Source: a virus
Length of the DNA stretch: 59,417 bases
IMG/VR virus record: IMGVR_UViG_3300003322_000298
Span: 1 to 59,417 of that record
Reading direction: 5' to 3' (one strand)
A model generated the notes under the pieces. It was not told the DNA's origin and did not search any database. It worked only from the letters and a program-made list of their open reading frames with translations. Positions 4,526 to 27,068 of the stretch are shown here, piece after piece (the stretch's first letter is position 1; every line of letters begins with the position of its first letter). The translations under genes and the position numbers were made by a program.

Positions 4526-4930
4526 ATGAAGCTGATCGCGAAAGTAGGCCTGCCCTACAAGACCCGCCACCTCGTGGCCGGCGAAGTCTTCGACTGTGAC
4601 GACGAGCGCCTCGCTACCCTGCTGCTGCGCATGGGTCGCGTTGCGCCGGCCGACCAACAGCCGGCAGCAGCCGCAGCGCTGGCATCGGCCGCGCCCGCCG
4701 GCAAGAAAGCCAGGGCCGCGAAGGCCGCCGCGCCCGCCCGGGCGCCGTCGCAGCCCGTCGCCATCATGACGACAGCCTCTGGCCTCATGCCGGGCGGCAG
4801 TCAGGCGCCTGACGACGGCGACAAGAAGGAAGCGCCGGCCGACGACGAGAAGCCGGCCAGCGCATCGAGCAACCAGCCTGACGGCGACAGCACGGACTCT
4901 GCGGGTGGCGGCAGCGGGAGCAGCGAGTAA
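4526..4930 (+). CDS. hypothetical protein, Ala/Pro-rich C-terminal half
   Basis: ORF with GGAGAA 6 nt upstream of the ATG. Low-complexity tail. Confidence 0.5.
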   Translation: MKLIAKVGLPYKTRHLVAGEVFDCDDERLATLLLRMGRVAPADQQPAAAAALASAAPAGKKARAAKAAAPARAPSQPVAIMTTASGLMPGGSQAPDDGDKKEAPADDEKPASASSNQPDGDSTDSAGGGSGSSE

Positions 4931-5178
4931 TGGCTGCCGGCGAAGTCGTCGTCGAGGTGAAGCTCTCGCGCGCCGCTCTTGCACTGGCGTTGCTGCGTGG
5001 CATCATGGCCGCGCTCGTATCTGCAGAACTGTGGGCGATGGCGCTGATCTTCATCGGCTTCGCGCTGATCGTGGCCGGTGTGGCTTTGATCTATGGCCTT
5101 GGCGCAGCGCTGATCGTGGCCGGTGCTTCATGCCTGCTACTGGCTGGGTTCATCTTTCGAGGGATGACGCATGTCTAA
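4930..5178 (+). CDS. small membrane protein
   Basis: ORF coupled TAATG to the upstream gene. Two or three hydrophobic helices. Confidence 0.5.
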   Translation: MAAGEVVVEVKLSRAALALALLRGIMAALVSAELWAMALIFIGFALIVAGVALIYGLGAALIVAGASCLLLAGFIFRGMTHV

Positions 5179-6610
5179 CCTATCCGTCTTCGGCGCGCTG
5201 CGCGGCGCTCTCACGGTGAAGGAGCCGGTCGACGTTTCCCTGCAGAACCTGCATCCACCAGGGCCTGGCGGCGGCGGCTGGTGGCCCATCGTGCGCGAGT
5301 CGTTCCCCGGCGCTTGGCAGCAGAACGTCGAGATCCGTCGCGACCTAGCCCTCGCGAACTGGGCGGTCTTCTCCTGCCTCACGCGGATCTCGAACGACAT
5401 GGGCAAGATGCGGCTTCGCCTAGTCAACGAAACCGCAGACGGCACTTGGGAAGAGACGCAGAGCCCGGCCTTCTCGCCGGTGCTGCGCAAGCCGAACCGG
5501 TATCAGACGCGGCAGAAGTTCATCGAGCACTGGCTGATCTCCAAGCTGGCCCACGGCAATACCTATGTGCTGAAGGAGCGCGACAAGCGCGGCGTCGTCG
5601 TCGCCCTCTACGTGCTCGACCCGCAACGGTGCAAGCCCCTCGTCGCGCCCGACGGCTCGGTCTACTACGCGCTGTGCGATGACTGGCTCGCCGGCCTCGA
5701 TCAATCTCTGCCCGCCGTGCCGGCAAGCGAGGTGATCCACGACGTCATGTATGCGCTCTTTCACCCGCTGTGCGGGCTGCCGCCCCTCTTCGCGTGCTCG
5801 CTGGCAGCCAGTACCGGCCTCAAGGCGCAGGAGAATGCCGCGCGCTTCTTCGCGAACCAGAGCATGCCGAGTGGCATCATCACGGCGCCCGAGCAGATCG
5901 AGGACACCGTCGCGGCGCGCATCAAAGCACACTGGGAGAATGGCTACACCGGGGTGAACGCCGGCCGCGTGGCTGTGCTGGGCGACGGCATGGAATACAA
6001 GCCGCTGGCCATGAAGTTCGTCGACTCCGACATGATCAATCAGCTGAAGCTCAGCGGGCAGATGATCTGCTCGACCTTCCACGTGCCGCCGTGGAAGGTG
6101 GGCCTCGAAGCGCTGCCGTCGGGTCAGAAGGTCGGCGACATGAACCAGATTTATTACAACGACTGCCTGCAGCCGCTGATCGAGTCGATCGAGGGCCTGC
6201 TCGACGATGGCCTCGGGCTGACCGAGCCGAAGGACGGCGTTCTCATGGGCACCGAGTTCGACCTGAGCGACCTCATCAAGATGGACGAGGGCACGCAGAT
6301 CACCACGCTGAACGAGGCCGTGAAGGGCGGATGGATGAAGCCCGACGAAGCGCGCCGTCGCCGCAACCTGCGGCCGGTGGAGGGCGGCAATACGCCGTAT
6401 ATGCAGCAGCAGAACTTCGCGCTGTCCGACCTAGCGCGCCGCTCGCAGCTCGACGACCCCTTCTCTGCCGGCAAGGCCGCGCCGCCGGCTCCCGCGCCGG
6501 CACCGGCAGATCCGCCGTCGCCGGAAGACGATGGCGCAGCCAATGATGCCGCGAAGGCATTCGCCGAGGCGCTGATCGAGCGCTTGATCCAGGCGACGGC
6601 GGAGACCTGA
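5171..6610 (+). CDS. portal protein (HK97 family)
   Basis: 479 aa with N-terminal region and length typical of Phage_portal family proteins. Confidence 0.9.
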   Translation: MSNLSVFGALRGALTVKEPVDVSLQNLHPPGPGGGGWWPIVRESFPGAWQQNVEIRRDLALANWAVFSCLTRISNDMGKMRLRLVNETADGTWEETQSPAFSPVLRKPNRYQTRQKFIEHWLISKLAHGNTYVLKERDKRGVVVALYVLDPQRCKPLVAPDGSVYYALCDDWLAGLDQSLPAVPASEVIHDVMYALFHPLCGLPPLFACSLAASTGLKAQENAARFFANQSMPSGIITAPEQIEDTVAARIKAHWENGYTGVNAGRVAVLGDGMEYKPLAMKFVDSDMINQLKLSGQMICSTFHVPPWKVGLEALPSGQKVGDMNQIYYNDCLQPLIESIEGLLDDGLGLTEPKDGVLMGTEFDLSDLIKMDEGTQITTLNEAVKGGWMKPDEARRRRNLRPVEGGNTPYMQQQNFALSDLARRSQLDDPFSAGKAAPPAPAPAPADPPSPEDDGAANDAAKAFAEALIERLIQATAET

Positions 6611-6614
6611 CGTC

Positions 6615-7157
6615 ATGGCGCGCGATGGCCGAGACGGTCGGGACGGGCGAGACGGCCTCGATGGCAGGGACGCAGATCCGGAGTTCATCCGCGCGGAAAT
6701 CGCGCGCATGCTCGCCGAGCTGCCGAAGCCGCGCGACGGCCGTGACTTCGACCCAGAACTTATGGCCCGCGAGGTGCAGCGCGCCGTCGATGCCATCCCG
6801 CGGCCGAAAGACGGCGCGCCCGGTCGTGACGGCCGCGATGGTCAGAGCGTCGATCGCGAGTTCGTGCGGCGCTACCTGCAGGCCGCCGTGGCCAACATGC
6901 GCGAGGCCAAGGACGGCGAGCCCGGCCCTCAGGGTCCGCGCGGCCCCGTCGGTCCCATGCCTCGGCATCGCTGGGTCGACGAGACGAAACTGCAGTTCGA
7001 GCGGCCGGATGGCACGTGGGGAGAAGCCGTCCAGCTGAAGGGCGAGCGCGGCGAGAAGGGCGAGCGCGGGCGCGACGGCATCGGCGGGGGCGTGGTCGTG
7101 CAGCAAGGCGGCGGAACAGGATCCGGCAACAGTTACTTTCCCGGAGGGTGGGCATGA
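6615..7157 (+). CDS. collagen-like repeat protein
   Basis: Four interrupted Gly-X-Y blocks: GRDGRDGRDGLDGRD, GAPGRDGRDGQS, GEPGPQGPRGPVGPM, GERGEKGERGRDGIG. Confidence 0.75.
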   Translation: MARDGRDGRDGRDGLDGRDADPEFIRAEIARMLAELPKPRDGRDFDPELMAREVQRAVDAIPRPKDGAPGRDGRDGQSVDREFVRRYLQAAVANMREAKDGEPGPQGPRGPVGPMPRHRWVDETKLQFERPDGTWGEAVQLKGERGEKGERGRDGIGGGVVVQQGGGTGSGNSYFPGGWA

Positions 7158-7903
7158 CAACGGTCTTCGATACGATCGCCGAGGTGTATCAGGAGGTCGC
7201 CGAGGAGACGACGAACGCCGTCGACGGCGGCAGCACGGATCGCTTCCTGCTCGTCGGCACGTTCACGATTAATGCATTCGGCGGCGCGCCAAACAATACG
7301 GACGCGCGCTACCCCACGGGGCCATCGCCGGCCGGCACAGGGTTGACGAGAATCGGGGCCGAGCTTGCCTACTTCTTCGGCAACGCGAATCAATCTGTCT
7401 GGCAAGGCGTGGGGCCGACTGGCGCGAGCGCTGTCTATGCGTCATTCGACGGCGGCTTTCGGCAGGGAATTGCCGCGCTGACGCTCGAAGGCACGTCTGG
7501 CTATCACGACGCGACGACCAACACCGGAGCCGTCGAGGACGTGACGGCTGTGGCCAGCGTGACGGTGCCGAATTGCGTCGAGGGTGAACTCGTGCTGGCC
7601 TACGTCACCTCGTCGTCTATCGACGGCTTTGCGGCGCCCTTCACCCCGGTGTCGGGGACGAGCATCCTTGTGCAGGCCGATGACGACTTCGACTCGCATT
7701 GCTGGATCGGAGCCGTCGCCCTCGCAGACGGCAACGTGACCCTACAGGTCAACGCAAACAACGGCTCGGGCGGCACCAATCTGCTGTCGTGGGCTGCGCG
7801 AGGCCTTGCGATGGTGGACACTGGCGGCGGCGTCACGATCGTGGCCGGCCCGCTCGTCGACGGAGCCATGCTCAAATCCAAACTGAAAGGGCTCGTGCAA
7901 TGA
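7154..7903 (+). CDS. hypothetical virion-module protein
   Basis: ATG 7154 overlaps the upstream stop (ATGA). The upstream part of ORF 7016-7903 is an out-of-frame overlap. Confidence 0.6.
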   Translation: MTTVFDTIAEVYQEVAEETTNAVDGGSTDRFLLVGTFTINAFGGAPNNTDARYPTGPSPAGTGLTRIGAELAYFFGNANQSVWQGVGPTGASAVYASFDGGFRQGIAALTLEGTSGYHDATTNTGAVEDVTAVASVTVPNCVEGELVLAYVTSSSIDGFAAPFTPVSGTSILVQADDDFDSHCWIGAVALADGNVTLQVNANNGSGGTNLLSWAARGLAMVDTGGGVTIVAGPLVDGAMLKSKLKGLVQ

Positions 7904-8868
7904 CTCAGCACCTTGGTGACTTCCCCGTCAACGCGACGGTTCATTTCAAGTGGAGCACGAACGACGCCAATGGCGCGGCCATCACGCGCGCCACGAATGG
8001 CACGGTCTCCGTGTACATCGGCAGCAGCACGACCCAGCTCACGACGGGCGTCACCGATACCGAGGACTTCGACAGCACGACGGGCTTGCACCACTGCTCG
8101 ATCGACCTGTCGTCGAGCGGCACCTATGCCGCCGGCAGCGAATGCCAGGTTGTGCTGAGCGGCGCCACGATTGACGGTCAGACGGTGAATGCCGTGCTGG
8201 CCAGTTTCAGCATCGAGCGCAGCGGCGGCGTGCTGGCGCTGCTGAAGGGCGCAAACGGCCTTGCGCAGATCCGCACGGACATCGCGGGCGTGCAGAGCGA
8301 CACCGACAATATCCAGGGGCGTCTGCCGGCCGCTCTCGTCGGCGGCAAGATGGATGCGAACGTGGGCGCTGTCGACAACAATGCCATTACCGCGGCGTCC
8401 CTGGCAGCTGACGCCGGCACCGAGATCGCGAACGCGGTGTGGGCGAGCGGCACGCGCACGATCACCGCACTCGACGAAGACAGCACGACCCTCGACCTGG
8501 ACGCTACGATTCGCGGGGCCGTCGGCCTGGCTGCAGCGAACCTCGACACACAACTCGGCGCGATCGACACCGATGTCGGTTCCATCCTCGACGACACCGG
8601 CACGTCCGGCGTTGTGGTGGCGACTGGCAGCAAGACGGGATACCGCCTTAGCGCCACGGGCGTCGACGACATCCTCGACGAGACCGTCGAGACCGGCGCG
8701 ACGCTGCGTGAGTCGATCCGCGGTCACAACGCGGCTCTTCTCGGCAAGGCCTCTGGTCTGGAGACGACAGGCGTTGCCTTCCGCAACCTGGCCGACACGA
8801 AGGACGTGATCACGGCGACCGTCGACAGCGACGGCAACCGCTCGGCAGTGACGGTGGATCTCACCTGA
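7900..8868 (+). CDS. hypothetical virion-module protein
   Basis: ATG 7900 with ATGA coupling. Thr/Ser/Asp/Gly-rich 322 aa. Confidence 0.6.
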   Translation: MTQHLGDFPVNATVHFKWSTNDANGAAITRATNGTVSVYIGSSTTQLTTGVTDTEDFDSTTGLHHCSIDLSSSGTYAAGSECQVVLSGATIDGQTVNAVLASFSIERSGGVLALLKGANGLAQIRTDIAGVQSDTDNIQGRLPAALVGGKMDANVGAVDNNAITAASLAADAGTEIANAVWASGTRTITALDEDSTTLDLDATIRGAVGLAAANLDTQLGAIDTDVGSILDDTGTSGVVVATGSKTGYRLSATGVDDILDETVETGATLRESIRGHNAALLGKASGLETTGVAFRNLADTKDVITATVDSDGNRSAVTVDLT

Positions 8869-8877
8869 CGGGCCGCC

Positions 8878-9285
8878 ATGTTCGGGCGCGCGTATTTTGG
8901 TGGCGGCTACTTCGGGCACCGTTACTTCGGTGACGGCGGCAGCATTCCGGCGACCGGCGCCAGCGCGGCGGCCGTCTGGGCCTATGTGCTGCCGAACGGG
9001 AAGAGCGCAGGGCAGAACATCGTCGAGATCAACGCCGGTATTTCAGCGCTACTGGCCATGCCGTCTTGCCTGGAGACGAACATCGAGGGCGGCTTCACTG
9101 CTGCCGACATCCTGCGGGTTCTCGCCGCGGTTGCCGCCGGCAAGACGACAATCACGGCGGGCGGCGGTGGTGCCGCCCAGGTGCAGTTCCGCTCGATCGA
9201 TGACACGCGCGAGGTGATCGACGCGAGCATGCAGGGCAGCGAACGAATCGACCTCACAATCGACCCCGGAGAGACGCCGTCATGA
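8878..9285 (+). CDS. hypothetical protein (YFGG-repeat N-terminus)
   Basis: ORF starting MFGRAYFGGGYFGHRYFGDGG. Confidence 0.6.
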   Translation: MFGRAYFGGGYFGHRYFGDGGSIPATGASAAAVWAYVLPNGKSAGQNIVEINAGISALLAMPSCLETNIEGGFTAADILRVLAAVAAGKTTITAGGGGAAQVQFRSIDDTREVIDASMQGSERIDLTIDPGETPS

Positions 9286-10559
9286 GCACAAAGAGAATCA
9301 GCCCCATGGAGCGCCTGGCCGACAGCGTGATGGCCGCGCTTCGCGGCTTCGTCGAATCGGCCGAGCGCCGCATCATGGGCAACGTCGAAAAGCGCTTCAA
9401 GGATCTGCCGGCCCCGCGCGACGGGAAGGACGGCCGCAGCGTCGAGCCGGAAGACGTGCGGAAGATGGTCGGCGAAGTCGTGGCCGCACTGGAGCTGCGC
9501 AGTGGCGAGGACGGCCGGGAAGGCCCTCCCGGCAAGGATGCGCCACCCGTCGATCTCGACGCGCTCAAAGAGAAGGTCCTGCCCGACCTGCTCAAGGCGG
9601 CCGACGACAAGATCGCCAATGTCGTGGCTCAGCTGCCGAGCGCGGAGGAAATGAAGGGCGAACCCGGCGACAAGGGTGAAGCCGGTCCGGCCGGTCCGGC
9701 CGGAGAGTCGGTGAGCGCCGAGCAGGTCGCAGTCCAGGTGCTGCCAGGCCTGCAGGCCATGGCCAAAGAGCTGATCGAGACGGCTGTCTCGGCCATTCCC
9801 GATCCGGAGCAGCTCAAGGGTCCGCAGGGTGAGCGCGGACCGGCGGGCGAGTCCGGCGTTGCGCCGACCGTCGCCGAGGTGGCCGAAGCCGTGCTGCCCA
9901 CCGTCAAGGAGGCCGCGCTTGTCGAGGTGGCGAAGATCGAGCCGCGCGCTGGCAAGGATGCCGACCCCGCGGAGATCGTCGAGCGGCTGATGCCGGTCGT
10001 GCGCGAGCAGTTGGAAGCGCTGGTGAAGGCCATCCCGCTGGCGAGGGACGGCCGCGACGGCGCTCCCGGGCGTGACGCCGCGCAGGTCGAGGTAATGCCG
10101 GCGCTCGACGAAAAGCGGGTGTACCCGCGCAGCACCTTCGCTCAGCACAAGGGCGGCCTCTGGCGCAGCCACAAGACAACCGAGGGCATGCTCGGCTGGG
10201 ACTGCATCGTGCGCGGCGTCGACAGCCTGGATATTGAGCAGGACGCCGAAGACCCGCGGCTCTTCCGCGTCGTCTCGACGCTTTCCGATGGCACGCGCGA
10301 GGAGAAGCAGCTGCGCATCCCCGCGGTGATCGATCGCGGCGTGTTCAAGGATGGCGAGGAGTACCAGAAGGGTGACGGCGTCACATGGGCGCGGCACTAC
10401 TGGATTGCCAAGCGCGACACGAAAGCCAAACCCGACGGTGGCGACGACTGGCGCCTTGCCGTCAAGTCCGGCCGTGATGGCCGCGACGGCAAAGACGGGA
10501 AGGACGGCGAGCGCGGCCCGCGCGGCGAACCCGGCAAGATCATCGGAGGCCTGCCATGA
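9282..10559 (+). CDS. collagen-like repeat protein
   Basis: Five Gly-X-Y blocks, for example GEPGDKGEAGPAGPAGES and GRDGRDGKDGKDGERGPRGEPG. Shares a P-x-P-R-D-G-x-D-G motif with 6615-7157. Confidence 0.75.
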   Translation: MSTKRISPMERLADSVMAALRGFVESAERRIMGNVEKRFKDLPAPRDGKDGRSVEPEDVRKMVGEVVAALELRSGEDGREGPPGKDAPPVDLDALKEKVLPDLLKAADDKIANVVAQLPSAEEMKGEPGDKGEAGPAGPAGESVSAEQVAVQVLPGLQAMAKELIETAVSAIPDPEQLKGPQGERGPAGESGVAPTVAEVAEAVLPTVKEAALVEVAKIEPRAGKDADPAEIVERLMPVVREQLEALVKAIPLARDGRDGAPGRDAAQVEVMPALDEKRVYPRSTFAQHKGGLWRSHKTTEGMLGWDCIVRGVDSLDIEQDAEDPRLFRVVSTLSDGTREEKQLRIPAVIDRGVFKDGEEYQKGDGVTWARHYWIAKRDTKAKPDGGDDWRLAVKSGRDGRDGKDGKDGERGPRGEPGKIIGGLP

Positions 10560-11191
10560 TCGATTCGAACCCCATCGCGATCACGGCGCCGGAGTCGAGC
10601 GCACTGTCCTTCATCAGCCTCGACCGTCTGCGCGCGCAGTGCGAGATCGTGCCGACCGAAGAGGACAGCGACGGCGTGCAGAGTCACCCCGACGACGCGC
10701 TGATCACTGGCTACCTGGAAAGCGCGATCGAGAAGGCCGAGGATTTCACGGGCCTCGCGATCTCGCTGCGCACCTGGGAGCAGGGCCGCGACGGCTACCC
10801 CATGTGGGGACGCGCGCCCATCGAGATCCTCCGGCCACCGCTCGTGCAGTTCATTTCCTTCACGTCGTCACAGGACAGCGACGGCGAGGTCGACCCGGCC
10901 ACGTACATCGTCGACCCGTTCGGACCCGTGGCCAGGCTGCGGCCGGTGACGTGCTGGCCCATCAGCTGCAACCCGGCACCGGCCTCGATGCGGCTGCGCT
11001 TCCGCGCGGGCTACAGCAACGAAGACAGCGATGCGAAGCCGCTGCCGGGGTTGATCCGCCAGGCGCTGCTGCTCACCGTCGCCGAGTGGTACAAGAATCG
11101 CGAAAACACCGTCGAGGGAGCCGTGCAGGAGCTGCCGGCGAGCGCGATGCACCTCCTGCGGCCTCGCCGCGTTCGCCTGGGGATGGCCTGA
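10556..11191 (+). CDS. head-tail connector (gp6-like)
   Basis: Position and N-terminal pattern (ALITGYLESAIEKAEDFTG) typical of Phage_connect_1 proteins. Confidence 0.75.
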   Translation: MIDSNPIAITAPESSALSFISLDRLRAQCEIVPTEEDSDGVQSHPDDALITGYLESAIEKAEDFTGLAISLRTWEQGRDGYPMWGRAPIEILRPPLVQFISFTSSQDSDGEVDPATYIVDPFGPVARLRPVTCWPISCNPAPASMRLRFRAGYSNEDSDAKPLPGLIRQALLLTVAEWYKNRENTVEGAVQELPASAMHLLRPRRVRLGMA

Positions 11192-11192
11192 C

Positions 11193-11561
11193 ATGCGCCG
11201 CGTAAGCGCGGGCCGCCTGCGGCACTGGCTGACCTTCGAGCGCCTGACCGTCGAGAACGACAGCGACGGCGCTCAGGTCGAGGCTTGGGTTCCCGCCTTC
11301 CCGGTGGGCCACATCATGCCGGCTGAGGTGACGCCGATCAGTGGTCGCGAGTTCATCGCCGCCGCCGCGACGCAGTCCAAGGTGACGCATCGCATCAAGA
11401 TCCGCTACCGAGAGGAGTTCCTCGCTCTGGGCTTCACGATGCGCGCGCGCACGGCCCGCAGCGGCCTGGTGTTCAATATCGAAGGGGCGCTCCCCGACCC
11501 CGACAGCGGCGTGCGGTACATAACGCTGATGGCTTCGTCTGGCATCAGCCCGGGGATGTAA
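11193..11561 (+). CDS. head-tail adaptor / head closure protein
   Basis: 122 aa. RLRHWLTFE...VTHRIKIRYR pattern typical of Phage_H_T_join proteins. Confidence 0.78.
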   Translation: MRRVSAGRLRHWLTFERLTVENDSDGAQVEAWVPAFPVGHIMPAEVTPISGREFIAAAATQSKVTHRIKIRYREEFLALGFTMRARTARSGLVFNIEGALPDPDSGVRYITLMASSGISPGM

Positions 11562-12160
11562 TGATCAAGGCGCGGCAGCCCGACTTCCGCGGGCGCACGG
11601 TAGCCGTGCTCGCCAGTGGACCGAGCCTGAGGCAGGAAGACATCGAGGCCGTGCGCGAGAGCGGGTGGGTCGCGATCGTCACGAATGCGACGTTCCTGCA
11701 TGCACCGTGGGCCGACGTGCTCTTCGGCTTCGACGCGCGCTTCTGGGGGGTCTACGGGCAACGCGCGAAGCTGGAATTCAAGGGCAGGATGGTGACGCAC
11801 TCGCAGACGCTTCCCAATGCGCACAGCGTCGAGTCCACGCACGGCTGCGAGTGGTTTATGCCGGCCGGCAACTCCGGGGCGTGCGCGGCGAACTACGCAC
11901 TCGCCGGCCACCCGGAGCGCGTCATCCTGCTGGGTTGCGACGCGCAGCTCACCGGTGGCCGCGCGCACTTCTTCGGAAACCACGAGGGTGGCCTGACGAA
12001 TTGCCTTTCGATCGGCCGTTGGCCCTCTGACTTCAAACAGGTGGCAGCGAAGGCGGCGATGATGCGCATCGCCGTGATCAATGCGAGCCGCGAGACGAGG
12101 CTCGACTGTTTCCCGCGAGCAGCGCTCGAAGACTTGCTGCCGGCGAAGGTGAATGCGTGA
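11561..12160 (+). CDS. DUF115/Maf-like (sialyltransferase-fold) protein
   Basis: VAVLASGPSL nucleotide-sugar-binding-like N-terminus and AGNSGACAANYALAGHPERVILLGCD core. Confidence 0.6.
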   Translation: MIKARQPDFRGRTVAVLASGPSLRQEDIEAVRESGWVAIVTNATFLHAPWADVLFGFDARFWGVYGQRAKLEFKGRMVTHSQTLPNAHSVESTHGCEWFMPAGNSGACAANYALAGHPERVILLGCDAQLTGGRAHFFGNHEGGLTNCLSIGRWPSDFKQVAAKAAMMRIAVINASRETRLDCFPRAALEDLLPAKVNA

Positions 12161-12951
12161 AGACCATCCGCGGCGGGCGAGGCCTTGGTGACACGCTGTA
12201 TCTGCAGGCGATCGTGCGCTACCTGGTGGCCCAGCATGACGAGGTGATTCAGGCGGCGTCAGATTTCCCTGACGTGTTCCGCACCCTCGGCAGGCGGGTT
12301 CGGGTCATACCATTCACTCGCGTCGGCGTCGGCATCGTGGCGCACTACGTGGCGCGCAAAGGCATGCCTGGCACAACGCAGTTCGAGGACATGTGCCTCT
12401 CGGCCGGCATTAGAAAGCCTGTCGACCTCGTGCTCGACTGGAAAGTAATAGACGAGGAAATCGTGCGGCTCGTGAAGGCGCCCGGCAAGCCAGTGATCTG
12501 TGTGCAGCTGCCACGCGCACCGATGGGGCGTACGGATGGGTTCGGCCACGATATCCTGCCGAACTGCGACGCCATCCAGCATGCATTGGAGGCACTGGCC
12601 GGCCGAGTCACCATCGTGCAGATAGGTGCCGGCAAGCCGCTGTATAGCTTCCGCGGCGTAGTCGACATCAACCTAGCCGATCAGACGAGCGTGTCTCAAC
12701 TGCTCGACGTGGCATCGGTGGCCGATGGCTTCGTCGGGTATCCGAGCTTCATCGTGCCGCTGGCCGAGTGCTTCGACCAGCCTTCGCTGATCGTATGGTC
12801 AGCACTAGGCCTGCAGTCCCTCGACCCGTTCATCAACAGGATCGCGCCTGGCAAGGTGCTGCACAAGAAGACCAGCAGGGCAGTTATCGACACCATGTCT
12901 AGAGAGGAGATCGCAAATGCAGCTGTCGCCCAGTTTCTGCACAAAGGCTGA
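12157..12951 (+). CDS. glycosyltransferase family 9-like (heptosyltransferase fold)
   Basis: N-terminal GRGLGDTLYLQAIVRYL and C-terminal LADQTSVSQLLDVASVADGFVGYPSFIVPLAE resemble GT9 signatures. Confidence 0.55.
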   Translation: MKTIRGGRGLGDTLYLQAIVRYLVAQHDEVIQAASDFPDVFRTLGRRVRVIPFTRVGVGIVAHYVARKGMPGTTQFEDMCLSAGIRKPVDLVLDWKVIDEEIVRLVKAPGKPVICVQLPRAPMGRTDGFGHDILPNCDAIQHALEALAGRVTIVQIGAGKPLYSFRGVVDINLADQTSVSQLLDVASVADGFVGYPSFIVPLAECFDQPSLIVWSALGLQSLDPFINRIAPGKVLHKKTSRAVIDTMSREEIANAAVAQFLHKG

Positions 12952-13597
12952 GGTAGCCAAGACCTTCGCCGGCAAGCGCGTGGCCATCGTCGGCAGCGGT
13001 CCCGGCGCGCTCGACAACGAACCCGGCTTCATCGACTCGCACGACGTCGTCGTGCGCGTGAACAATTACAAGCTCAGCGAGTCAACTGGCTTTCGGTGCG
13101 ATGTGCACTATTCCTTCTATGGATCGTCGATCAAGAAGGATCGACTCGAACTGGCCGCCGACGGCGTGCGCCTGGTCATGTGCAAGTGCCCCGATGCGAA
13201 GTTCATGGAGAGCGAGTGGCATCGCAGAATGAACAAGCCGCACGGCGTGGACTTCCGCTACATCTACGCGATGCGGCGCGACTGGTGGTTTTGCCCGACA
13301 TACATCCCCAGCGCGGAGGAGTTCCAGCGGAGCTTCGACCTGCTGGCCCAGCACATCCCATCGACTGGCTTCTCTGCGATCCTCGCCGTGCGCGAGCAAC
13401 GTCCGGCCAGCATCTATCTCACAGGTTTCGACTTCTTCGCGTCGCGCGTGCACAACGTCAACGAACCGTGGCGTCCCGGCAATCCCGATGATCCGATTGG
13501 CCACGCGCCGGAGTTAGAGCGAGCATGGCTTCGCGGTCGACTTCACGAAGGCATCACGATGGATGCCCGGCTTGCTTCCATCATGAAAGGGGAATGA
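12917..13597 (+). CDS. CstII/GT42-GT29-like sialyltransferase
   Basis: KRVAIVGSGPGALDNEPGFIDSHDVVVRVNNY, PSTGFSAILAV...IYLTGFDFF and PIGHAPELE match sialyl-motif L/S-like and CstII catalytic-His contexts. This is recalled from memory. Confidence 0.65.
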   Translation: MQLSPSFCTKAEVAKTFAGKRVAIVGSGPGALDNEPGFIDSHDVVVRVNNYKLSESTGFRCDVHYSFYGSSIKKDRLELAADGVRLVMCKCPDAKFMESEWHRRMNKPHGVDFRYIYAMRRDWWFCPTYIPSAEEFQRSFDLLAQHIPSTGFSAILAVREQRPASIYLTGFDFFASRVHNVNEPWRPGNPDDPIGHAPELERAWLRGRLHEGITMDARLASIMKGE

Positions 13598-13598
13598 C

Positions 13599-14174
13599 GT
13601 GCAATTCTGGTCAGCTGAAATTGAGAAGCAGGTCGGGGCGCGAGTGCAGATGGTGCTCGAAGATCCGCAGCTGCTGAAGGCATACCAGAGATTCGGCGCC
13701 GACATTCTGCGCAGGTCGAGCGTGTTCCACGGCCTCGACAAATTCCTGCGCGACACCGGTGTGCGCGGCGAGCGATGCTTCGAGATCGGCACATGGAATG
13801 GCCTTACCGCGGTCATCCTTTCGCGCTACTTCGACGAGGTGGTGAGCGTCGACATCGCTCATAACGCCGTCAAACACGAGGTGCTCGACTACCTCGGCGT
13901 GCGCAACGTGACGTGCATCGACATCCGCGACAACAGCCACAAAGCCCAAGTCGCGAACCGCATGTACTTCGACTTCGCCTATCTCGATGGCGACCATGCC
14001 AGCGACACCGCCGACGACTGGGCGCTGACGAAGAAGGCCGGGCGCGTGCTCTTCCACGAGGTGTGGCCGCATCAGCCGCCCGTCTGGGAACTGGTCCACC
14101 AGCAGCACCCAGCAGAGGTGACGTTCAACGGCCAAGGTCTGGCGCTCTGGCAAGCCCGGGAGAAGCGTGTATGA
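13599..14174 (+). CDS. class I SAM-dependent methyltransferase
   Basis: GTG start. CFEIGTWNGLTAVIL (motif I) and FDFAYLDGDH. Confidence 0.72.
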   Translation: MQFWSAEIEKQVGARVQMVLEDPQLLKAYQRFGADILRRSSVFHGLDKFLRDTGVRGERCFEIGTWNGLTAVILSRYFDEVVSVDIAHNAVKHEVLDYLGVRNVTCIDIRDNSHKAQVANRMYFDFAYLDGDHASDTADDWALTKKAGRVLFHEVWPHQPPVWELVHQQHPAEVTFNGQGLALWQAREKRV

Positions 14175-14680
14175 GTCTCTATCGATACAAAGGCGAGCTG
14201 TTCCCCGACTACCTGAAGACGGGCAATGCATGCCAGCACATCGCCGCCACGGCCCTGCACTTCTGCAAGGGCTATGGCGTCGACGTCGGCGCGAACGAGT
14301 GGCCGCTTCCCGGCGCGATTCCCGTCGACAGCAAGCACGGCGGCGACGCAATGAACCTGCCGGGCTCGGAATTCGACTTCGTCTTCAGCAGCCATTGCCT
14401 GGAGCACTTGCCGAATCCGATCGCGGCGCTGGATCACTGGATTGCCAGCCTGCGCGATGGCGGCGTGCTGTTCCTGTATCTTCCCCACCCAGATATGACG
14501 TATTGGCGCCCGCAGAACTGCAGGAAGCATCTGCACAGCTGGCGGCCTGCCGACATGGCGCAGATCTTGAAGGATCTCGGCCTCCAGTCGGTGATTCACG
14601 GCGAGCGCGACCTCGCCTGGAGCTTCGCAGTGGTCGGTTACAAGCACGGTGGTTTCGGAGACAGCTGGGAGACGAGCTGA
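14171..14680 (+). CDS. class I SAM-dependent methyltransferase
   Basis: ATG 14171 (ATGA coupling). GVDVGAN...FDFVFSSHCLEHLPNP...LRDGGVLFLYLP. Confidence 0.72.
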   Translation: MSLYRYKGELFPDYLKTGNACQHIAATALHFCKGYGVDVGANEWPLPGAIPVDSKHGGDAMNLPGSEFDFVFSSHCLEHLPNPIAALDHWIASLRDGGVLFLYLPHPDMTYWRPQNCRKHLHSWRPADMAQILKDLGLQSVIHGERDLAWSFAVVGYKHGGFGDSWETS

Positions 14681-15327
14681 TGGACCGTTTCATTGCCAGG
14701 ATGCAGGGCGAGCGCGATGGTGACCTCGTGCTCTGCCACGAGTTCGGCGTCGCCTACCAGGCCGACATGACGCCCACGGCTGCGTATGACGACAGCTACT
14801 TCGACAAGTGCGCGGGCTACGAAGGCAGCGAGATCGCCGAGAAGATCAACGCGGGCCGCGTGGCCTTCGTGAACAAGCATATGGGCGGCAATCGCGTGCT
14901 CGACGTCGGCATCGGCTCCGGCGAGTTCATTCGCCGCCGGCCCAACACGTGGGGAACCGATGTGAACCCGCGGGCCCTGAAGTGGCTGCGAGACAACGGC
15001 CACCAGGCCGATGACTTCGATGGCTTCGCCGGCTACACGTTCTGGGACGTGATCGAGCACGTGCCGGCGCCAGAGGAGTACCTGAGGCACGTGCAGCTCG
15101 GCGCCTACGTCTTCACGTCGATCCCCATCGTGTACGGCCTGCGCGCGGTGCGGCAGTCGAAGCACTACAGACCCGGCGAGCACCTCTACTACTGGACCGA
15201 GCAGGGCTTCACCAACTGGATGCGCATGCACGGCTTCATGCTGCTGGAGACGTCGCGATTCGAGATCGACGCAGGCCGCGAGTCCATCATGTCGTTCACC
15301 TTCAAGCGCTTCGCCTGGCCGCGCTGA
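14680..15327 (+). CDS. class I SAM-dependent methyltransferase
   Basis: ATG 14680 overlaps the upstream TGA. VLDVGIGSGEF...WDVIEHVPAPEEYL. Confidence 0.72.
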   Translation: MDRFIARMQGERDGDLVLCHEFGVAYQADMTPTAAYDDSYFDKCAGYEGSEIAEKINAGRVAFVNKHMGGNRVLDVGIGSGEFIRRRPNTWGTDVNPRALKWLRDNGHQADDFDGFAGYTFWDVIEHVPAPEEYLRHVQLGAYVFTSIPIVYGLRAVRQSKHYRPGEHLYYWTEQGFTNWMRMHGFMLLETSRFEIDAGRESIMSFTFKRFAWPR

Positions 15328-15336
15328 CGCGCGACA

Positions 15337-15858
15337 ATGCCGGCCATGGCCTCTGATCTCGTCGAATTCAAGCTGAACGGCGTCGACGGCGTGCTCGACA
15401 TGCTCAAGTCTTTGCCGGCCGAGGTGGTGAGCAAGCGCGGAGGCGTCGTCAAGATAGCGCTTCGCAAGGGTGCGCGCGTGATCCTGCAGGCCGAGAAGGT
15501 CGCGCTTCAGCGCTCGATCAATGCCGGCGTGTCCGAAGAGGAAAGCACGGGGCTGCTCATGAAGAGCCTGGTCGTCACGCGCGGCAAGCCGCCGATCGGC
15601 GGCAAGGGTGAGCGCTACCTGACGCGGGTCAAGCTCAAGGCATACGACGGCCAGTCGCTGAAGAAGAAGCAGAAGCGCGGCAAGCGCGTGACGACGTTGA
15701 AAACCGCGCAGCTGATGGAATACGGCAGCGGCCACCAGGAGGCGCAGCCGTGGATCCGCCCGGCATTCAAGGCCAAGGCAGCCGAGGCGATCGCCGTCGT
15801 CGAGCGTGAGACCGTGGCAGGCATCGAGCAGGCCGTGAAGAAGCTACTCAAGACCTGA
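15337..15858 (+). CDS. HK97 gp10-like tail/neck component
   Basis: 173 aa. QPWIRPAFKAK motif and position ahead of the tail genes. Confidence 0.75.
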   Translation: MPAMASDLVEFKLNGVDGVLDMLKSLPAEVVSKRGGVVKIALRKGARVILQAEKVALQRSINAGVSEEESTGLLMKSLVVTRGKPPIGGKGERYLTRVKLKAYDGQSLKKKQKRGKRVTTLKTAQLMEYGSGHQEAQPWIRPAFKAKAAEAIAVVERETVAGIEQAVKKLLKT

Positions 15859-15869
15859 GAGGAAACAAA

Positions 15870-16247
15870 ATGCTGCCACCGGTATACCGCGACCTCAAAA
15901 ACTCGACGCGTGTCGTCGAGATTGTGGCCGACCGCATCTTTCGGCGCGGCGTGGTCGCGCTGCCGCAGAGCGGCCCCTACCTGACGTGGTTCCTCGTGAC
16001 TGGCGTACCTGAGAACACGCTGAGCGAGACGCCTGCTGTCGACAGGATGACGGTGCAGATCGACGTCTGGGCGCCCACGGACAAGCAATGCGAGGTTTTG
16101 GCGACGGCTGTGCGCGACGCACTGGAAGACAAAGCTCACATGACGGGGATGCCGATCGACGGACGCGATCCGGACACGAAACTTTGGCGGCTAGCGCTGG
16201 AGTTCGACTACTTCGTCGGCAGACCTGCGCTGGAGCCGACGAGCTAG
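15870..16247 (+). CDS. DUF3168-like tail completion/terminator protein
   Basis: 125 aa, position and N-terminal pattern. Ends with TAG. Confidence 0.7.
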   Translation: MLPPVYRDLKNSTRVVEIVADRIFRRGVVALPQSGPYLTWFLVTGVPENTLSETPAVDRMTVQIDVWAPTDKQCEVLATAVRDALEDKAHMTGMPIDGRDPDTKLWRLALEFDYFVGRPALEPTS

Positions 16248-16266
16248 CCTAGAATCGTGTCGGACC

Positions 16267-16288
16267 CGACGGGGGTGCAACCCCGTCG
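16267..16288 (+). promoter_or_regulatory. stem-loop upstream of the major tail gene
   Basis: CGACGGGG-gtgcaa-CCCCGTCG, an 8-bp stem with no T tract. Confidence 0.35.
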
Positions 16289-16375
16289 AGCCCTGACCCT
16301 TGCGACTGGCTGGAGCCGCAGTGGCTTCGATGATTGTCTCTTAACCGCCCACTGGGCACTCTAGGAGCAACCGCC

Positions 16376-16882
16376 ATGACGCAAGGCACTTTGAAAACTC
16401 AGGGATCCGAGCTGTTCGGGATCGACAACTACACGACGACCGATCCGACGCTCTTCAAGATGGCATGCCCGACGGGCATTCAGGGCCTCGGCGGCCCCGC
16501 CGACCAACTCGACGACACTTGCCTCGACAGCGCCGAACGAACCTTCAAGCGCGGCCTCGGCAACCCCGGCCAAGTGACCGTTCCCTTCAATTTCATTCCG
16601 ACGAATACGTCGCATCAGCTGATTAACGCCCTCAAGGAGGACGGCCGCCTGCTGCGCTGGATGATCGGCTTCAGCGATGGCAGCACGGCCCCGACGGTCA
16701 GTGTCGACACCGACGGCGCCGGCTCCTTCGTGGCGCCTGGCTCGCGTACCACGGCCGAATTCGATGCCTACGTCGCCGACGTAAACATCGACATCGCGAC
16801 GAACGAGATCGTTCGCGGGACGATGATCCTGCAGCGCTCCGGCTCGGTGCAGTGGCACTACAACGCTCCGCAGCCGACATGA
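16376..16882 (+). CDS. major tail tube protein
   Basis: ATG 16376 with AGGAG at 16364-16368. Size and position are typical. Confidence 0.78.
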   Translation: MTQGTLKTQGSELFGIDNYTTTDPTLFKMACPTGIQGLGGPADQLDDTCLDSAERTFKRGLGNPGQVTVPFNFIPTNTSHQLINALKEDGRLLRWMIGFSDGSTAPTVSVDTDGAGSFVAPGSRTTAEFDAYVADVNIDIATNEIVRGTMILQRSGSVQWHYNAPQPT

Positions 16883-17217
16883 GCCGCGCGCTGCTGGGGG
16901 AAGCCTCGCTCTATCGAGGCGACAAGCCGCACGAGCGCGTCATTCAATTGCCGAATGGCACGTCGGGCACCTTCTACATCCGCGATCTGCGCGAGATCGA
17001 GGTCGAGGCCTACTTCGAGAAGCAACGGGCCGGTGGCGAACAGCAGATGCTGGCCGAGATCGATCTCTGCGTCGCAGCCATCATGGAGCCGGACGGAGAG
17101 ACCCCATCTCTCGATACCGACCATGCATCTCGCTTGAAGATGGCGGTTCGCAAGCGGCTTGTGCATGCCATCCTCGAAGTGAACGGCTTCATCGACGCGG
17201 AGAAGGCGGGAAACTGA
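16879..17217 (+). CDS. tail assembly chaperone (gpG-like)
   Basis: Lies between the tail tube and tape measure genes. Ends right after a slippery heptamer. Confidence 0.8.
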   Translation: MSRALLGEASLYRGDKPHERVIQLPNGTSGTFYIRDLREIEVEAYFEKQRAGGEQQMLAEIDLCVAAIMEPDGETPSLDTDHASRLKMAVRKRLVHAILEVNGFIDAEKAGN

Positions 17218-17552
17218 TCGCCGCCCAGGGCTCGCGCTGGTTCTGGCATGTGCTAGCGCTTGGTCTGGGCGGACGCTCAATCGCGGAGTGGCAAAGCGTG
17301 ATGTCGGCCACCGAATTTCAGTCGTGGGTGGAATTCTGGAAAGCGCACCCATTCGATGATGAAGCCCGCTATCTGCGGCCTGCTGCGCGGCTCCTGCATG
17401 CGCAGATCGGCGGCAGCTTCGAGGAACATCTGCGCTGGATGCGTCGGAAGATCGATGTCGAGACGGTTGCGCCGCCAGCACCCGAAGGCGGATGGAGTCA
17501 AGCGGACCTGAACACGTTCAAGGCCCTGGGCGCCGTGATACCGCGCGCGTGA
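16879..17552 (+). CDS. tail assembly chaperone frameshift product (gpGT-like)
   Basis: 16879-17214 joined by a -1 shift to 17214-17552. The downstream frame has no convincing independent start or RBS. Confidence 0.7.
17208..17214 (+). promoter_or_regulatory. -1 programmed frameshift slippery site G_GGA_AAC
   Basis: X_XXY_YYZ in the correct register, 1 codon before the TGA. The -1 frame is open from 17214 to 17552. Confidence 0.75.
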
Positions 17553-17562
17553 AGGAGAGAGC

Positions 17563-19716
17563 ATGGCAGCCGGTTCGATCATCATCGACCTTCTCATGAA
17601 GACCGGGTCCTTCGAGACCGACACCGATCGGGCTGCGAAGGCGCTGGAGAAGTTCAATAAGAAGGCACAGGAGGTCGGCAAGACCATCGGCGTTGCCATT
17701 AGCGCGGCGGTGGTGGGCGCCGCCGCCGCCTTCGACCAACTCGTCAAGAGCGCGGCCGACTTTAAGGACCTGGAAGAGACGATCGGCGCCAGCGCGGAAG
17801 ACATCGCCTCGCTGTCGATCGCCGCCGCCACGGCCGGCGTGAGCATCGAGTCGGTGGCCGGCGCAACGATCAAGCTCACGAAGGGGCTGACCGGTGTTGA
17901 CGACGAATCCAAGGCAGCCGGCGCCGCCCTGGCGGCCCTCGGCATCAATATCGAAGAATTCAAGCGCCTGGATCCAGTTGGGCAGTATGAGGCCGTTGGC
18001 AAGGCGCTGTCCGGCTTCGCAGATGGCGCCCAGAAGACGGCTGTTGCGGTGGCACTCTTCGGCAAGACAGGCGCCGAGCAGCTACGCGTCTTCAAAGCGC
18101 TTGACGAGGCCGGCGGTCGTCAGGTGATCCTGACGCAGCAGCAGATCGAACTCGCGGACGCCTACGCCGACAAGCAAGCCAAGCAAGCCGCTACGCTTAA
18201 GGCATACGCCCAGACGATTGCCGTCGACGCGCTGCCGGCGTTCAACGATTTCACGCAGGCGCTCACCGAGGTCGTCAAGGCCTTCGCTGGCATTGACAAC
18301 GCCGGCAAGAAGCTGGCTGGCCAGAGCCAGGCCGCGGAGTTCGCGAAGACGGCGGCCGACAGCTTGGCGCTGATCGTCGACGCCGGCCAGATGGTCGTGC
18401 GCATCTTTGAGGCGATTGGAAAGTCGATCGGCGCCCGCCTGGCGCAGGTTGCGTCGTTCGCGCGCGGCGATTTCGCGGAGGCGATCCGCATCGGCAAGGA
18501 TGCAAAAGACGAAATTGATAGCCTCCTGAGCGCTGAGAGCTTCAGCCAGAAGCTGCAGAAGGTGCGAGACGCCAACAGGCTCGGCTCGCTCGGCCAAGGC
18601 TCGGCCGATCTGGCGCGGCGGGGACGCGGTCCGGCGGCGCTGCCTCAGATCGACTTCGAGGGCCCGCAGAAGGCAGCTAAGACACCGAAGGACAAGCTTA
18701 CCGACGCCGATCGCTACCTTGAGAAACTGCGCGAGTCGACGAGCAAGGCAAACGAACTGACGGCCGTCGAAACGCTGCTCGCCGACGTCCAGGCCGGGCG
18801 CTTCAAGGGCGCCAAGGCCGGCCAGTTGGAGACGGCGCTGTACTACGCCCAGCAGGTCGACGACGCCAAGAAGCTCACGGCGCAGGAAAAGGAACTCGTG
18901 CGGCAAGCCGACGAGATGGAGAAGAAAAGCAACGAGCTGCGCGATGCTGGCACCGATGTCTTCAAGAGCACGCGCACCGACGCCGAGAAGTACAGCGCCG
19001 AATTGATCCGACTCAACGGGTTGCTTTCGGCGGGCGCGATCGACTATGACACCTATGGGCGGGCTATCAAGTCGGCGGCCGAGCAGTTCGACGATGCCAC
19101 GAAGAAGCAGAAGGAGGTTCAGGCGGCCATCGACTCATCGCTGACGACGAACGCGGCAGACGCCTTCTCTGATTTCATTAGCGGCACGAAGAGCGCAAGC
19201 CAGGCTTTCAAGCAATTCGCGAACTCGGTGATCCTCGACCTAATCCGCATCGCGGCACAAGAGGCGGCCACCAAGTTGTTCGGCGACAGCAGCAAGGGCT
19301 CGGGCTCCGGCTTTGGAGCGCTGCTCGGCAAGATCTTCGGCAGTGGTGGTTCGGTCAATAGTGGGAACGGAGCCTTCCTCGGCGACTATGGCGATGCAGC
19401 GACGGGCCTCGCCACGGGCACGAACTACGTGCCGAACGATGGCTTTCGCGCCATCCTGCACAAGGGTGAGGCCGTGGTGCCGCGTGAGTACAACCCGGCG
19501 GCCGGCGGCATTGGTGGTGGCGGCGACGTACAGATCGTGACGCCGCCCGGCGTGCCAATGACGGCCCAGGTTCAGGAAGAGCAGCGCGACGGCCGCCGCC
19601 TGAAGAAGATCGTGTTGTCGACGATGGTGCAGGATGCTCAGGACGGTGGCGTCGGCATCAAGACGATCACGGGCGTGACGGGCACGAATCGCAAACTAGC
19701 GCGTCGAGGCCGCTGA
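17563..19716 (+). CDS. tape measure protein
   Basis: 717 aa, Ala-rich helical, directly after G/GT. Confidence 0.9.
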   Translation: MAAGSIIIDLLMKTGSFETDTDRAAKALEKFNKKAQEVGKTIGVAISAAVVGAAAAFDQLVKSAADFKDLEETIGASAEDIASLSIAAATAGVSIESVAGATIKLTKGLTGVDDESKAAGAALAALGINIEEFKRLDPVGQYEAVGKALSGFADGAQKTAVAVALFGKTGAEQLRVFKALDEAGGRQVILTQQQIELADAYADKQAKQAATLKAYAQTIAVDALPAFNDFTQALTEVVKAFAGIDNAGKKLAGQSQAAEFAKTAADSLALIVDAGQMVVRIFEAIGKSIGARLAQVASFARGDFAEAIRIGKDAKDEIDSLLSAESFSQKLQKVRDANRLGSLGQGSADLARRGRGPAALPQIDFEGPQKAAKTPKDKLTDADRYLEKLRESTSKANELTAVETLLADVQAGRFKGAKAGQLETALYYAQQVDDAKKLTAQEKELVRQADEMEKKSNELRDAGTDVFKSTRTDAEKYSAELIRLNGLLSAGAIDYDTYGRAIKSAAEQFDDATKKQKEVQAAIDSSLTTNAADAFSDFISGTKSASQAFKQFANSVILDLIRIAAQEAATKLFGDSSKGSGSGFGALLGKIFGSGGSVNSGNGAFLGDYGDAATGLATGTNYVPNDGFRAILHKGEAVVPREYNPAAGGIGGGGDVQIVTPPGVPMTAQVQEEQRDGRRLKKIVLSTMVQDAQDGGVGIKTITGVTGTNRKLARRGR

Positions 19717-26703: not shown

Positions 26704-27068
26704 TCGTTCTGGACTATATGAACGCCATGGCTTGCGCGGTGCTACTAGTGCTGGTGTGGCCAGTAGCGAACGCCATGCACAACCGCGGCTTCTGGCTGCA
26801 GCGGATCGGGCTCTGGCTCATCGCCTTCTCGCTCGGCCTCCAGGTATGTGCCCCCTTCTTCGACTTCATCCCAGACGCGACGCCTCTCGGCTCGGTCTTT
26901 ATGACGATCCTCGCTGTCGTCGCCGTACGCCACCGGCACCAGGTCATGGCCGTCGTGAGGCTTGCCGTCGGTGAGATCGCCGCAGATTCGGAGCATCCCA
27001 TGAGGCGCGTCGAAGACCTTCAAACTTCCCAGTTGATGGCCGTCCGTGGCCGAGGAGCCCAGCAATGA
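26700..27068 (+). CDS. membrane protein
   Basis: ATG 26700 (ATGA coupling). Three hydrophobic helices. Confidence 0.55.
   Translation: MIVLDYMNAMACAVLLVLVWPVANAMHNRGFWLQRIGLWLIAFSLGLQVCAPFFDFIPDATPLGSVFMTILAVVAVRHRHQVMAVVRLAVGEIAADSEHPMRRVEDLQTSQLMAVRGRGAQQ

Follow-up and report, generated by a model that had tools for sequence, protein, structure and literature searches.

Why a tailed phage should carry genes for sugar and methyl transfer among the genes that complete its head and tail is the question raised by the virus record IMGVR_UViG_3300003322_000298 (59,417 nucleotides, IMG/VR; the whole of this stretch is referred to as the window). Six coupled genes (g1 to g6; 11561-15327, + strand) are located there between the genes for head closure (Hc1) and for the Neck1/tail-completion protein, and code for two sialyltransferase-fold proteins, one GT9-like glycosyltransferase and three proteins assigned, with differing firmness, to the class I S-adenosylmethionine (SAM) methyltransferases. 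The island is tentatively read here as a cassette that may build a small methylated glycan on the virion, a proposal whose chances are judged to lie somewhat below even. It proceeds from context and analogy only: from how the genes are arranged, how their products fold and to which families they belong, and from the optional presence and the conservation of the cassette, all of which were observed, we infer late co-expression, donor identity, a virion protein as acceptor, and sugar rather than protein as the target of methylation. What would be new is a cassette of the virion-glycosylation type with different enzyme folds in phages of Gram-negative bacteria. Decoration of the particles, if it takes place, would affect phage immunogenicity, stability and adsorption and possibly the evasion of host defence.

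Organization of the island

The genes for g1 (199 aa; 11561-12160), g2 (264 aa; 12157-12951), g3 (226 aa; 12917-13597), g4 (191 aa; 13599-14174), g5 (169 aa; 14171-14680) and g6 (215 aa; 14680-15327) are all encoded on the + strand and are joined, from Hc1 through g6, by TAATG and GTGA junctions, a 35-bp overlap, a 1-bp gap, and ATGA and TGATG junctions; 9 bp separate g6 from Neck1. In the mechanical list of open reading frames (ORFs), g5 is contained within the frame of ORF 13913-14680, and g6 forms the distal part of ORF 14167-15327. Across 9000-18000, no sigma-70-like site was detected, and + strand terminators were represented by one weak stem of three GC pairs inside g3, the total count being lower than expected from shuffled sequence; the island has neither a promoter-like site nor a credible terminator of its own. 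Both the coupling of the six genes and the lack of a terminator between them and the structural genes had been noted in a preliminary description made from the sequence alone, and are upheld by the overlapping or abutting stops and starts and by the single weak stem. The HK97 gp10-like gene which that description placed at 15337 was likewise recovered (Neck1, 15337-15858, + strand, PHROG 5), whereas the gene at 11193-11561 (+ strand), there named the head-tail adaptor, encodes Hc1 (PHROG 25), the adaptor Ad1 being encoded at 10556-11191 (+ strand, PHROG 442/40).

In view of a GC content at third codon positions (GC3) of 0.77-0.85 in g1-g4 and of strong homologues (best E-values of 5e-54 for g1, 1e-110 for g2 and 1e-114 for g3), the island genes are regarded as real. 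The GC content amounts to 0.60-0.62 over 12001-14000 (g2-g4) versus 0.68 in the head genes immediately upstream; since the tail and early regions are similar (0.60-0.65), base composition gives no sign of a foreign island. No hydrophobic segments were detected in the six proteins (highest 19-residue Kyte-Doolittle mean, 1.36).

Sialyltransferase-fold proteins g1 and g3

Protein g1 belongs to PHROG 4603 (E 7e-36) and is assigned to the sialyltransferase fold (MptE-like/DUF115, CstII/Maf superfamily). A profile of 45 g1 relatives matches CstII at E 0.003 and Maf (5mu5) at E 0.047, the latter over residues 13-42 only, and alignment of the g1 and g3 families by hhalign gave a probability of 93 % (E 2.5e-7). 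The DUF115/Maf-like sialyltransferase fold proposed for g1 in the preliminary description is thus retained. Of the Maf/CstII enzymes (MptE-like, GT42), CstII has in common with g1 and g3 a nucleotide-binding start, GxGPS, and a core of the form SG...GxD. Maf enzymes glycosylate flagellin in the cytoplasm; they are multidomain proteins of about 600 aa, whereas g1 is a single-domain protein of 199 aa, and the sequence similarity is marginal (E 0.003-0.05). Within the g1 family, which comprises 2,566 clusters at 50 % identity, G20, S22, N42, D58, G125, H136 and N174 are invariant. Family members are fused to, or adjoin, GT2, TOD1/MUCI70-like and sulfotransferase domains, which are, as judged by sequence, glycan-pathway partners. 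Single-sequence searches of the PDB with g1, g2 and g3 returned only noise.

Protein g3 is a GT29-like enzyme of the sialyltransferase fold. It scores 18.7 bits (E 0.0012) against PF00777, under the cut-off of 23 bits, and this family is matched by 19 of 30 close g3 relatives (E <= 0.01, best 3.9e-6) as the only recurrent one. The best PDB profile match is the motif-L region of ST3Gal-I, residues 11-75 of g3 aligning to residues 93-160 of ST3Gal-I; sialylmotif L (VGNSG...G..ID.HD.V.R.N) is present in g3 as KRVAIVGSGPGALDNEPGFIDSHDVVVRVNN, with residues invariant or near-invariant across the family. Motifs resembling those of GT29 read, in g3, KRVAIVGSGPG...IDSHDVVVRVNN, PSTG...TGFDFF and H196-x4-E201. 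Across 30 relatives, IPSTGFSA...YLTGFDFF and H196-APEL-E201 do not vary; their fit to sialylmotifs S (PSTG...GF) and VS (H-x4-E) was judged by eye, the computed GT29 alignments stopping short of VS. Invariant in the family are S27, G28, P29, G30, D40, R47, N49, P148, T150, G151, G170, D172, F173, H196 and E201. According to its AlphaFold2 model (pLDDT 86), g3 has the GT-A variant 2 fold typical of GT29 and GT42: of 28 PDB matches obtained with Foldseek at E <= 1e-3, among them CstII, CstI, ST6GalNAc2, ST8Sia3, ST3Gal1 and ST6Gal1, 27 are GT42 or GT29 sialyltransferases (TM-score 0.42-0.53), the remaining one being the cell-division regulator SteA (9hmz_G). Viral GT29-like proteins are matched by the model as well. 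Of the CstII-like sialyltransferase originally proposed, the fold therefore stands, while the sequence lies nearer to GT29.

More than 1,100 g3 clusters (90 % identity) were obtained, nearly all metagenomic and many on contigs of 30-60 kb; a tblastn search of 50,697 GenBank phage records gave no match to g3. In every context examined, the family was located in phage structural operons. Bacterial GT29-like sequences, 23 in number, have been reported without known function (Petit et al. 2018, PMC5811610). As described there, they possess neither a transmembrane domain nor the disulfide-pair cysteines, in which g3, inspected by eye, agrees with them; g3 is shorter (226 aa) and resides in phage structural operons. 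A corollary of the improbable claim on commonly glycosylated phage heads, discussed below, would be that these rare "bacterial" relatives of the eukaryotic sialyltransferases are largely phage-borne. Should the proposed glycosylation hold true, it would provide a function for bacterial and phage GT29-like enzymes, which are discussed as ancestors of the eukaryotic sialyltransferases.

The GT9-like enzyme g2

Searches with g2 against Pfam (including GT9, PF01075), PHROG and NCBIfam gave no match. Its AlphaFold2 model (pLDDT 95.3) has a compact GT-B fold which, by comparison of models and structures, is nearest to members of GT9 (heptosyltransferase type): the top 26 PDB matches in Foldseek are TibC (6.5e-9), WaaF (1psw; 9.4e-9), 3tov (GT9) and WaaC, with E-values from 6.5e-9 to 6e-7 and TM-scores of 0.5-0.67. 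These neighbours bear out the earlier designation as GT9-like. The N-terminal Gly-Asp motif of GT9 enzymes is kept (GLGD, with G9, G11 and D12 invariant). In contrast to the 320-390 aa of GT9 enzymes, however, g2 has 264 aa, a reduced N-terminal domain and no PF01075 match. The protein O-heptosyltransferase TibC exemplifies a GT9 fold able to glycosylate proteins with host ADP-heptose. At least 246 relatives of g2 (clusters at 90 % identity) were found, nearly all metagenomic and many on contigs of 30-60 kb, and the 50,697 GenBank phage records contained no tblastn match to g2.

Methyltransferases g5 and g6 and the probable methyltransferase g4

Against PF13489 (cut-off 27 bits), g5 scores 51.3 bits (E 1.4e-13; Methyltransf_23/11) and g6 45.9 bits (E 6.8e-12); g6 also belongs to PHROG 6564 (E 6.3e-50). 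On these profile matches, the assignment of g5 and g6 to the class I methyltransferases is solid. For g4 (Methyltransf_24-like) the same assignment is probable and a weaker call; its orthologues on ENA contig_7154 (see below) match Methyltransf_24 weakly, and its copy number and order differ between related islands. The three class I SAM methyltransferases of the preliminary description accordingly comprise two that lie above the family cut-off and one, g4, that lies below that of PF13578. Single-sequence PDB searches with g4-g6 yielded generic small-molecule methyltransferases only.

Occurrence, optional insertion and conservation

A blastn search of the region against GenBank phages returned nothing. 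Via g3, 80 viral contigs were fetched in which the order g1-g2-g3-(g4/g5, number and order varying)-g6 is kept and which, where long enough, usually carry Hc1 upstream and Neck1 downstream; the six-gene layout is identical on an NCBI contig (L005). Scanning of a genome collection with g3 revealed one named host, Pseudoduganella, with a prophage carrying g1-g2-g3-g4-g6 between head and tail genes.

For comparison of the junction, phages were retrieved by an alignment-based Neck1 query (Neck1 50-60 % identical). Between Hc1 and Neck1, four states were encountered: an empty junction with a gap of 6-14 bp, a three-gene triad of 1.9 kb, cassettes of 3-4.5 kb combining g1 with other enzymes (including Methyltransf_11 and a GT8-like protein), and the full six-gene island. 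Since these states range from empty to full, the cassette is optional and modular, and the suspicion that the island is an insertion was borne out by synteny, as relatives have Hc1 abutting Neck1, a short triad or other cassettes at this place. The most constant member is g1, present in every non-empty state; in several relatives it is located upstream of head closure. The cassette occurs at the head-tail junction in the group with a protease-capsid fusion and also in phage D3 and an ENA contig, both of which have separate protease and capsid genes. On an unrelated HK97-like contig, a g1-family gene fused to a GT2 domain lies just past the connector genes.

In complete loci, median identities of the island enzymes (g5, the most conserved, 67 %; g3, 64 %; g6, 61 %) exceed those of Hc1 (51 %), Neck1 (53 %) and the major tail protein (50 %); conservation is thus higher in the island than in the structural genes around it. 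In phages that have the tail module in common, g1 was present in 19 of 20 with the head type of the window versus 5 of 12 with another (Fisher p 0.0016, without phylogenetic correction), and this association of g1 with head type hints at a head-linked role.

Two variant islands carry additional genes. One (L041) contains a gene for a Sulfotransfer_2-type carbohydrate sulfotransferase (3200-3787), and another (L090, 5009-9004) codes for Methyltransf_11, a GT8-like protein and four further, unassigned ORFs. Most extra ORFs of variant islands had no Pfam match. The gene immediately before the island is, in several relatives, a counterpart of the one at 9282 and not that for head closure.

Counterparts in cultured phages

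Homologues of g1 and g6 were found in the Pseudomonas phages D3, PMG1, PP9W2 and PAJU2, and of g1 only in P1. Identity of g1 amounts to 41 % with D3 orf7 and 35 % with PAJU2 ORF010, that of g6 to 36 % with D3 orf13 and 37 % with PAJU2 ORF012 (range over the D3-type homologues, 35-37 %), and the g2 family aligns with that of D3 orf12 and PAJU2 ORF011 at a probability of 97.7 % (hhalign, E 1.5e-12). By these homologies of g1, g2 and g6, the island of the window consists of a D3-type triad plus the GT29-like enzyme and two methyltransferases. PAJU2, the nearest cultured phage by capsid (protease-capsid fusion, 44 % identity), has the adaptor, ORF010 (g1), ORF011 and ORF012 (g6) in succession. In D3, orf7 (g1-like) follows the capsid gene, and orf12 and orf13 (g6-like) are located between head closure and the HK97 gp10 gene; the Neck1 and tail terminator of the window are homologous to D3 orf14 and orf15.

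D3, PAJU2 and D3-like phages thus carry their cassette where the window does, in the head-completion/tail-completion region of an HK97-type siphovirus. It comprises three genes instead of six, g3, g4 and g5 being absent, and in D3 the g1 homologue precedes the adaptor so that, unlike in the window, the triad is split by connector genes. Novelty of the gene content for Gram-negative siphoviruses, as first put forward, was overstated, because the core triad is present in D3 (orf7, orf12, orf13) and PAJU2 (ORF010-012). Several recent GenBank records of D3-like phages label cassette genes as sialyltransferase, GT9/GT-B or methyltransferase, and the full-text literature searched contained no functional work on D3 orf7/12/13, PmgO or PAJU2 ORF010. 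Being phages of P. aeruginosa, D3 and PAJU2 offer tractable models for the cassette.

In the P1-like phage RCS47 (4959-7517), a g1 homologue occupies the PmgO position of the late "pmg" operon, whose other products include PmgP, a metallophosphoesterase and one that is annotated as a glycosyltransferase and is related to neither g2 nor g3. The P1 "glycosyltransferase" PmgQ was considered as a further cassette member and rejected, since it is unrelated to g2, the D3 orf12 family and g3; only g1 is shared.

Comparison with known systems of virion glycosylation

Glycosylation of mycobacteriophage virions shields the particles from antibodies. In cluster O mycobacteriophages, an O-methyltransferase and three glycosyltransferases modify capsid and tail tube proteins, as summarized in a secondary account (PMC11600133, citing Freeman 2023). 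The actinophage systems (Che8, cluster O) resemble the island in having tandem glycosyltransferases together with an O-methyltransferase and in being dispensable for assembly (Freeman et al. 2023, as cited in PMC11256854 and PMC11600133). They differ in their mycobacterial hosts, and these two sources report no sialyltransferase-fold or GT9-like enzymes for them; the glycosylation genes of Che8-type phages lie near the right genome end, unlike the window island, and the glycans described there decorate capsid and tail tube, whereas glycosylation by the cassette of the window is proposed by analogy.

A second parallel is provided by chlorovirus PBCV-1, the A064R protein of which combines two rhamnosyltransferase domains with a methyltransferase domain and acts in capsid glycosylation. 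PBCV-1 employs virus-encoded cytoplasmic glycosyltransferases and a methyltransferase capping the capsid glycan, as is proposed for the cassette; it differs in being a giant virus of eukaryotes, in the folds of its enzymes, which are unrelated, and in its glycans, which are N-linked. The full-text literature searched described no comparable system in phages that infect Gram-negative bacteria.

Proposed function and alternative explanations

As envisaged here, the island would be an optional, late-expressed cassette on a transcript shared with the head-completion and tail-completion genes. Its three soluble glycosyltransferases would assemble a short oligosaccharide on a protein of the phage particle, more likely one of the head module than of the tail, and the three SAM methyltransferases would methylate or cap this glycan. 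The donor for g2 would be of the ADP-heptose type, those for g1 and g3 cytidine monophosphate (CMP)-activated ulosonic acids, i.e. either Kdo (3-deoxy-D-manno-octulosonate) or a nonulosonic acid, taken from the pools of the host. Among the 28 larger ORFs downstream of the tape-measure gene (19.7-59 kb) and ORF 7151-7900 of the head region, to which the Pfam scan was confined, no nucleotide-sugar synthesis domains were found, in agreement with the preliminary description and fitting a supply of donors by the host. Synthesis of the lipopolysaccharide (LPS) core provides CMP-Kdo and ADP-heptose in most Gram-negative cells, and neither the P1 host E. coli K-12 nor P. aeruginosa PAO1, one of the hosts of D3, is known to make nonulosonic acids. 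Since, moreover, the plant GT29 enzyme RCKT1 uses CMP-Kdo (PMC11288761), the donor need not be sialic-acid-like.

Two elements of the preliminary description, a nonulosonic sugar and the virion proteins as its acceptors, are therefore not established: the fold also uses CMP-Kdo and g1 homologues occur in P1, and the choice of substrate proceeds from operon context and analogy. The collagen-like proteins (6615-7157, 9282-10559) named there as targets fared no better. Their G-X-Y runs, of 4-8 triplets, were found, as was the Ser/Thr richness of the 7900-8868 protein (Ser+Thr 21.7 %), yet tblastn with the collagen-like query gave no match in the stretch of D3 covered (PAJU2 not searched); as D3 does carry the core cassette, they are unlikely to be a universal target. 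A more specific claim, that head glycosylation from CMP-Kdo (g1, g3) and ADP-heptose (g2) is common among phages of Gram-negative bacteria and yields a glycan capped by methyl groups and similar to the inner core of LPS, is improbable. If true, a head-glycosylating cassette would require no sugar-synthesis genes, only the activated sugars of the LPS core.

Several points weigh against a virion glycan. Neither an acceptor protein nor an acceptor motif emerged, and the glycan on virions of cassette-bearing phages is itself deduced by analogy. LPS or lipooligosaccharide (LOS) cores are the typical substrate of GT9-like and sialyltransferase-fold enzymes. Boundaries of head and tail modules often host unrelated inserted genes, so that the position of the island alone constitutes weak evidence. 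At the level of single proteins, g1 scores 14 bits against PF01973, below the threshold of 34.6 (the fusion relative P0245 passes with 41.5 bits, 6 of the 9 other fusion relatives scanned are under the cut-off, and P0257, P0304 and P0366 are without a PF01973 match); g4 reaches 22.3 bits against PF13578 (E 2.6e-4), under the cut-off of 26.3; and NCBIfam and PDB searches gave no informative specific relatives for the methyltransferases. To be added on this side are the locus of contig_7154 and a database label on PAJU2 ORF010, both of which bear on rival explanations.

The cassette could instead modify a glycan of the host envelope (LPS inner or outer core, O-antigen, capsule or flagellin), be it for receptor masking on lysing cells and debris or as a conversion function. 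This is considered unlikely, though it accommodates the LPS core enzymes WaaC, WaaF and WaaG among the structural neighbours of g2, and the action of CstII-like sialyltransferase-fold enzymes on LOS. D3 is, besides, a serotype-converting phage, via other genes. On ENA ERZ25039524 contig_7154 (L003/L165; 576596-606957), the genes for capsid, portal and Hc1 and then g1-g5 lead directly, on the same strand, into sugar genes (GT4 enzymes, UDP-GlcNAc 2-epimerase, UDP-ManNAc dehydrogenase, a Wzx-like flippase, WbpB/D/E-like genes), an O-antigen-like cluster beyond which housekeeping genes and no tail genes are found. A larger phage island including these sugar-synthesis genes was rejected, as the flippase-containing O-antigen cluster is of host type and tail genes are lacking; the phage genes there are read as what is left of a prophage next to a host locus, which lessens the bearing of the contig on host glycans. 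The island of the window, moreover, departs from lysogenic-conversion clusters of the gtrABC type: it has no promoter or terminator of its own, its genes are embedded and translationally coupled among late structural genes, membrane segments are missing, and no GtrA/B-type or flippase partner was detected among the window ORFs scanned. The site at the head-tail junction is kept across lineages and is not by an integrase or attachment site, and there would be little time for LPS synthesized just minutes ahead of lysis to arrive at the cell surface.

A still less probable explanation holds that g1 is mainly structural or neck-associated, maybe glycan-binding, and that the methyltransferases act on Lys, Gln or Arg of virion proteins, sugar transfer being minor or absent. 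It gains from half of the island genes being methyltransferases, from the essentiality that tail protein methylation can have for phage infectivity (in mycobacteria, by a host enzyme; PMC13445384), and from PAJU2 ORF010 (AP009624.1, 7780-8349), the depositors' label of which, "structural protein", could mean that g1 is part of the particle and not an enzyme; the label, which also speaks for the association with the virion proposed above, is borne in the first 13 kb of PAJU2 by only two other products, the capsid fusion and major tail proteins. Invariant polar residues resembling active sites in g1 (S22, N42, D58, H136, N174), g2 (D12, R120, D127, E204) and g3 (H196, E201) argue for enzymes, however, as do the fusions of the g1 family to bona fide glycosyltransferase domains; and since relatives without the cassette exist, it is not needed for building the particle. 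Hypermodification of phage DNA, with bases glycosylated and methylated before packaging, would be compatible with expression near packaging and has a precedent in phage glycosyltransferases that put diverse glycans on 5-hydroxymethylcytosine DNA (bioRxiv 10.1101/2023.12.21.572611), but must be regarded as highly improbable: the scanned ORFs (28 larger ones and 7151-7900) contained no domain of a cytosine-C5 methyltransferase, TET/5mYOX, dCMP/dUMP hydroxymethylase or kinase, the methyltransferases are of the small-molecule Methyltransf_23/24 types rather than of DNA methylase families, and the DNA glycosyltransferases described in that study include none with a sialyltransferase or GT9 fold.

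General features of the genome

An exact direct repeat of 151 bp at the termini (1-151 and 59267-59417) indicates a complete genome in circular assembly. Upstream of the island, genes were assigned to the small (168) and large (683) terminase subunits, a protease-capsid fusion of 669 aa (2453-4462), the portal (5171-6610) and, between portal and adaptor, head-associated proteins, two of which contain the short collagen-like runs. Downstream of Neck1 follow the tail terminator (15870-16247, + strand, PHROG 78), the major tail protein (16334) and the tape measure (17563). The position of the capsid fusion gene upstream of the portal is an unusual order common to PAJU2.

The proteins encoded at 6615-7157 and 9282-10559 match C-terminal parts of PHROGs annotated as "portal protein" (phrog_2271 at positions 561-613 and 615-857; phrog_1289), which suggests that, in other phages, the collagen-like modules are joined to the portal in a single protein. 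Just past the capsid gene, 4526-4930 codes for a protein with a folded N-terminus (phrog_2616) and a long, probably disordered tail rich in Ala, Pro, Ser and Asp; a small gene is found at the equivalent place in D3 (orf6.5) and PAJU2 (ORF004), and the product is a candidate acceptor or decoration protein.

No integrase domain was detected among the ORFs scanned with Pfam. Further assignments include a right-handed beta-helix protein resembling tailspikes or depolymerases (27065-28849), a YAcAr/SLOG-family protein (36168-36779), DUF5131 (phage Gp37/Gp68 family; 39251-40237) and DUF1643 (44331-44840).

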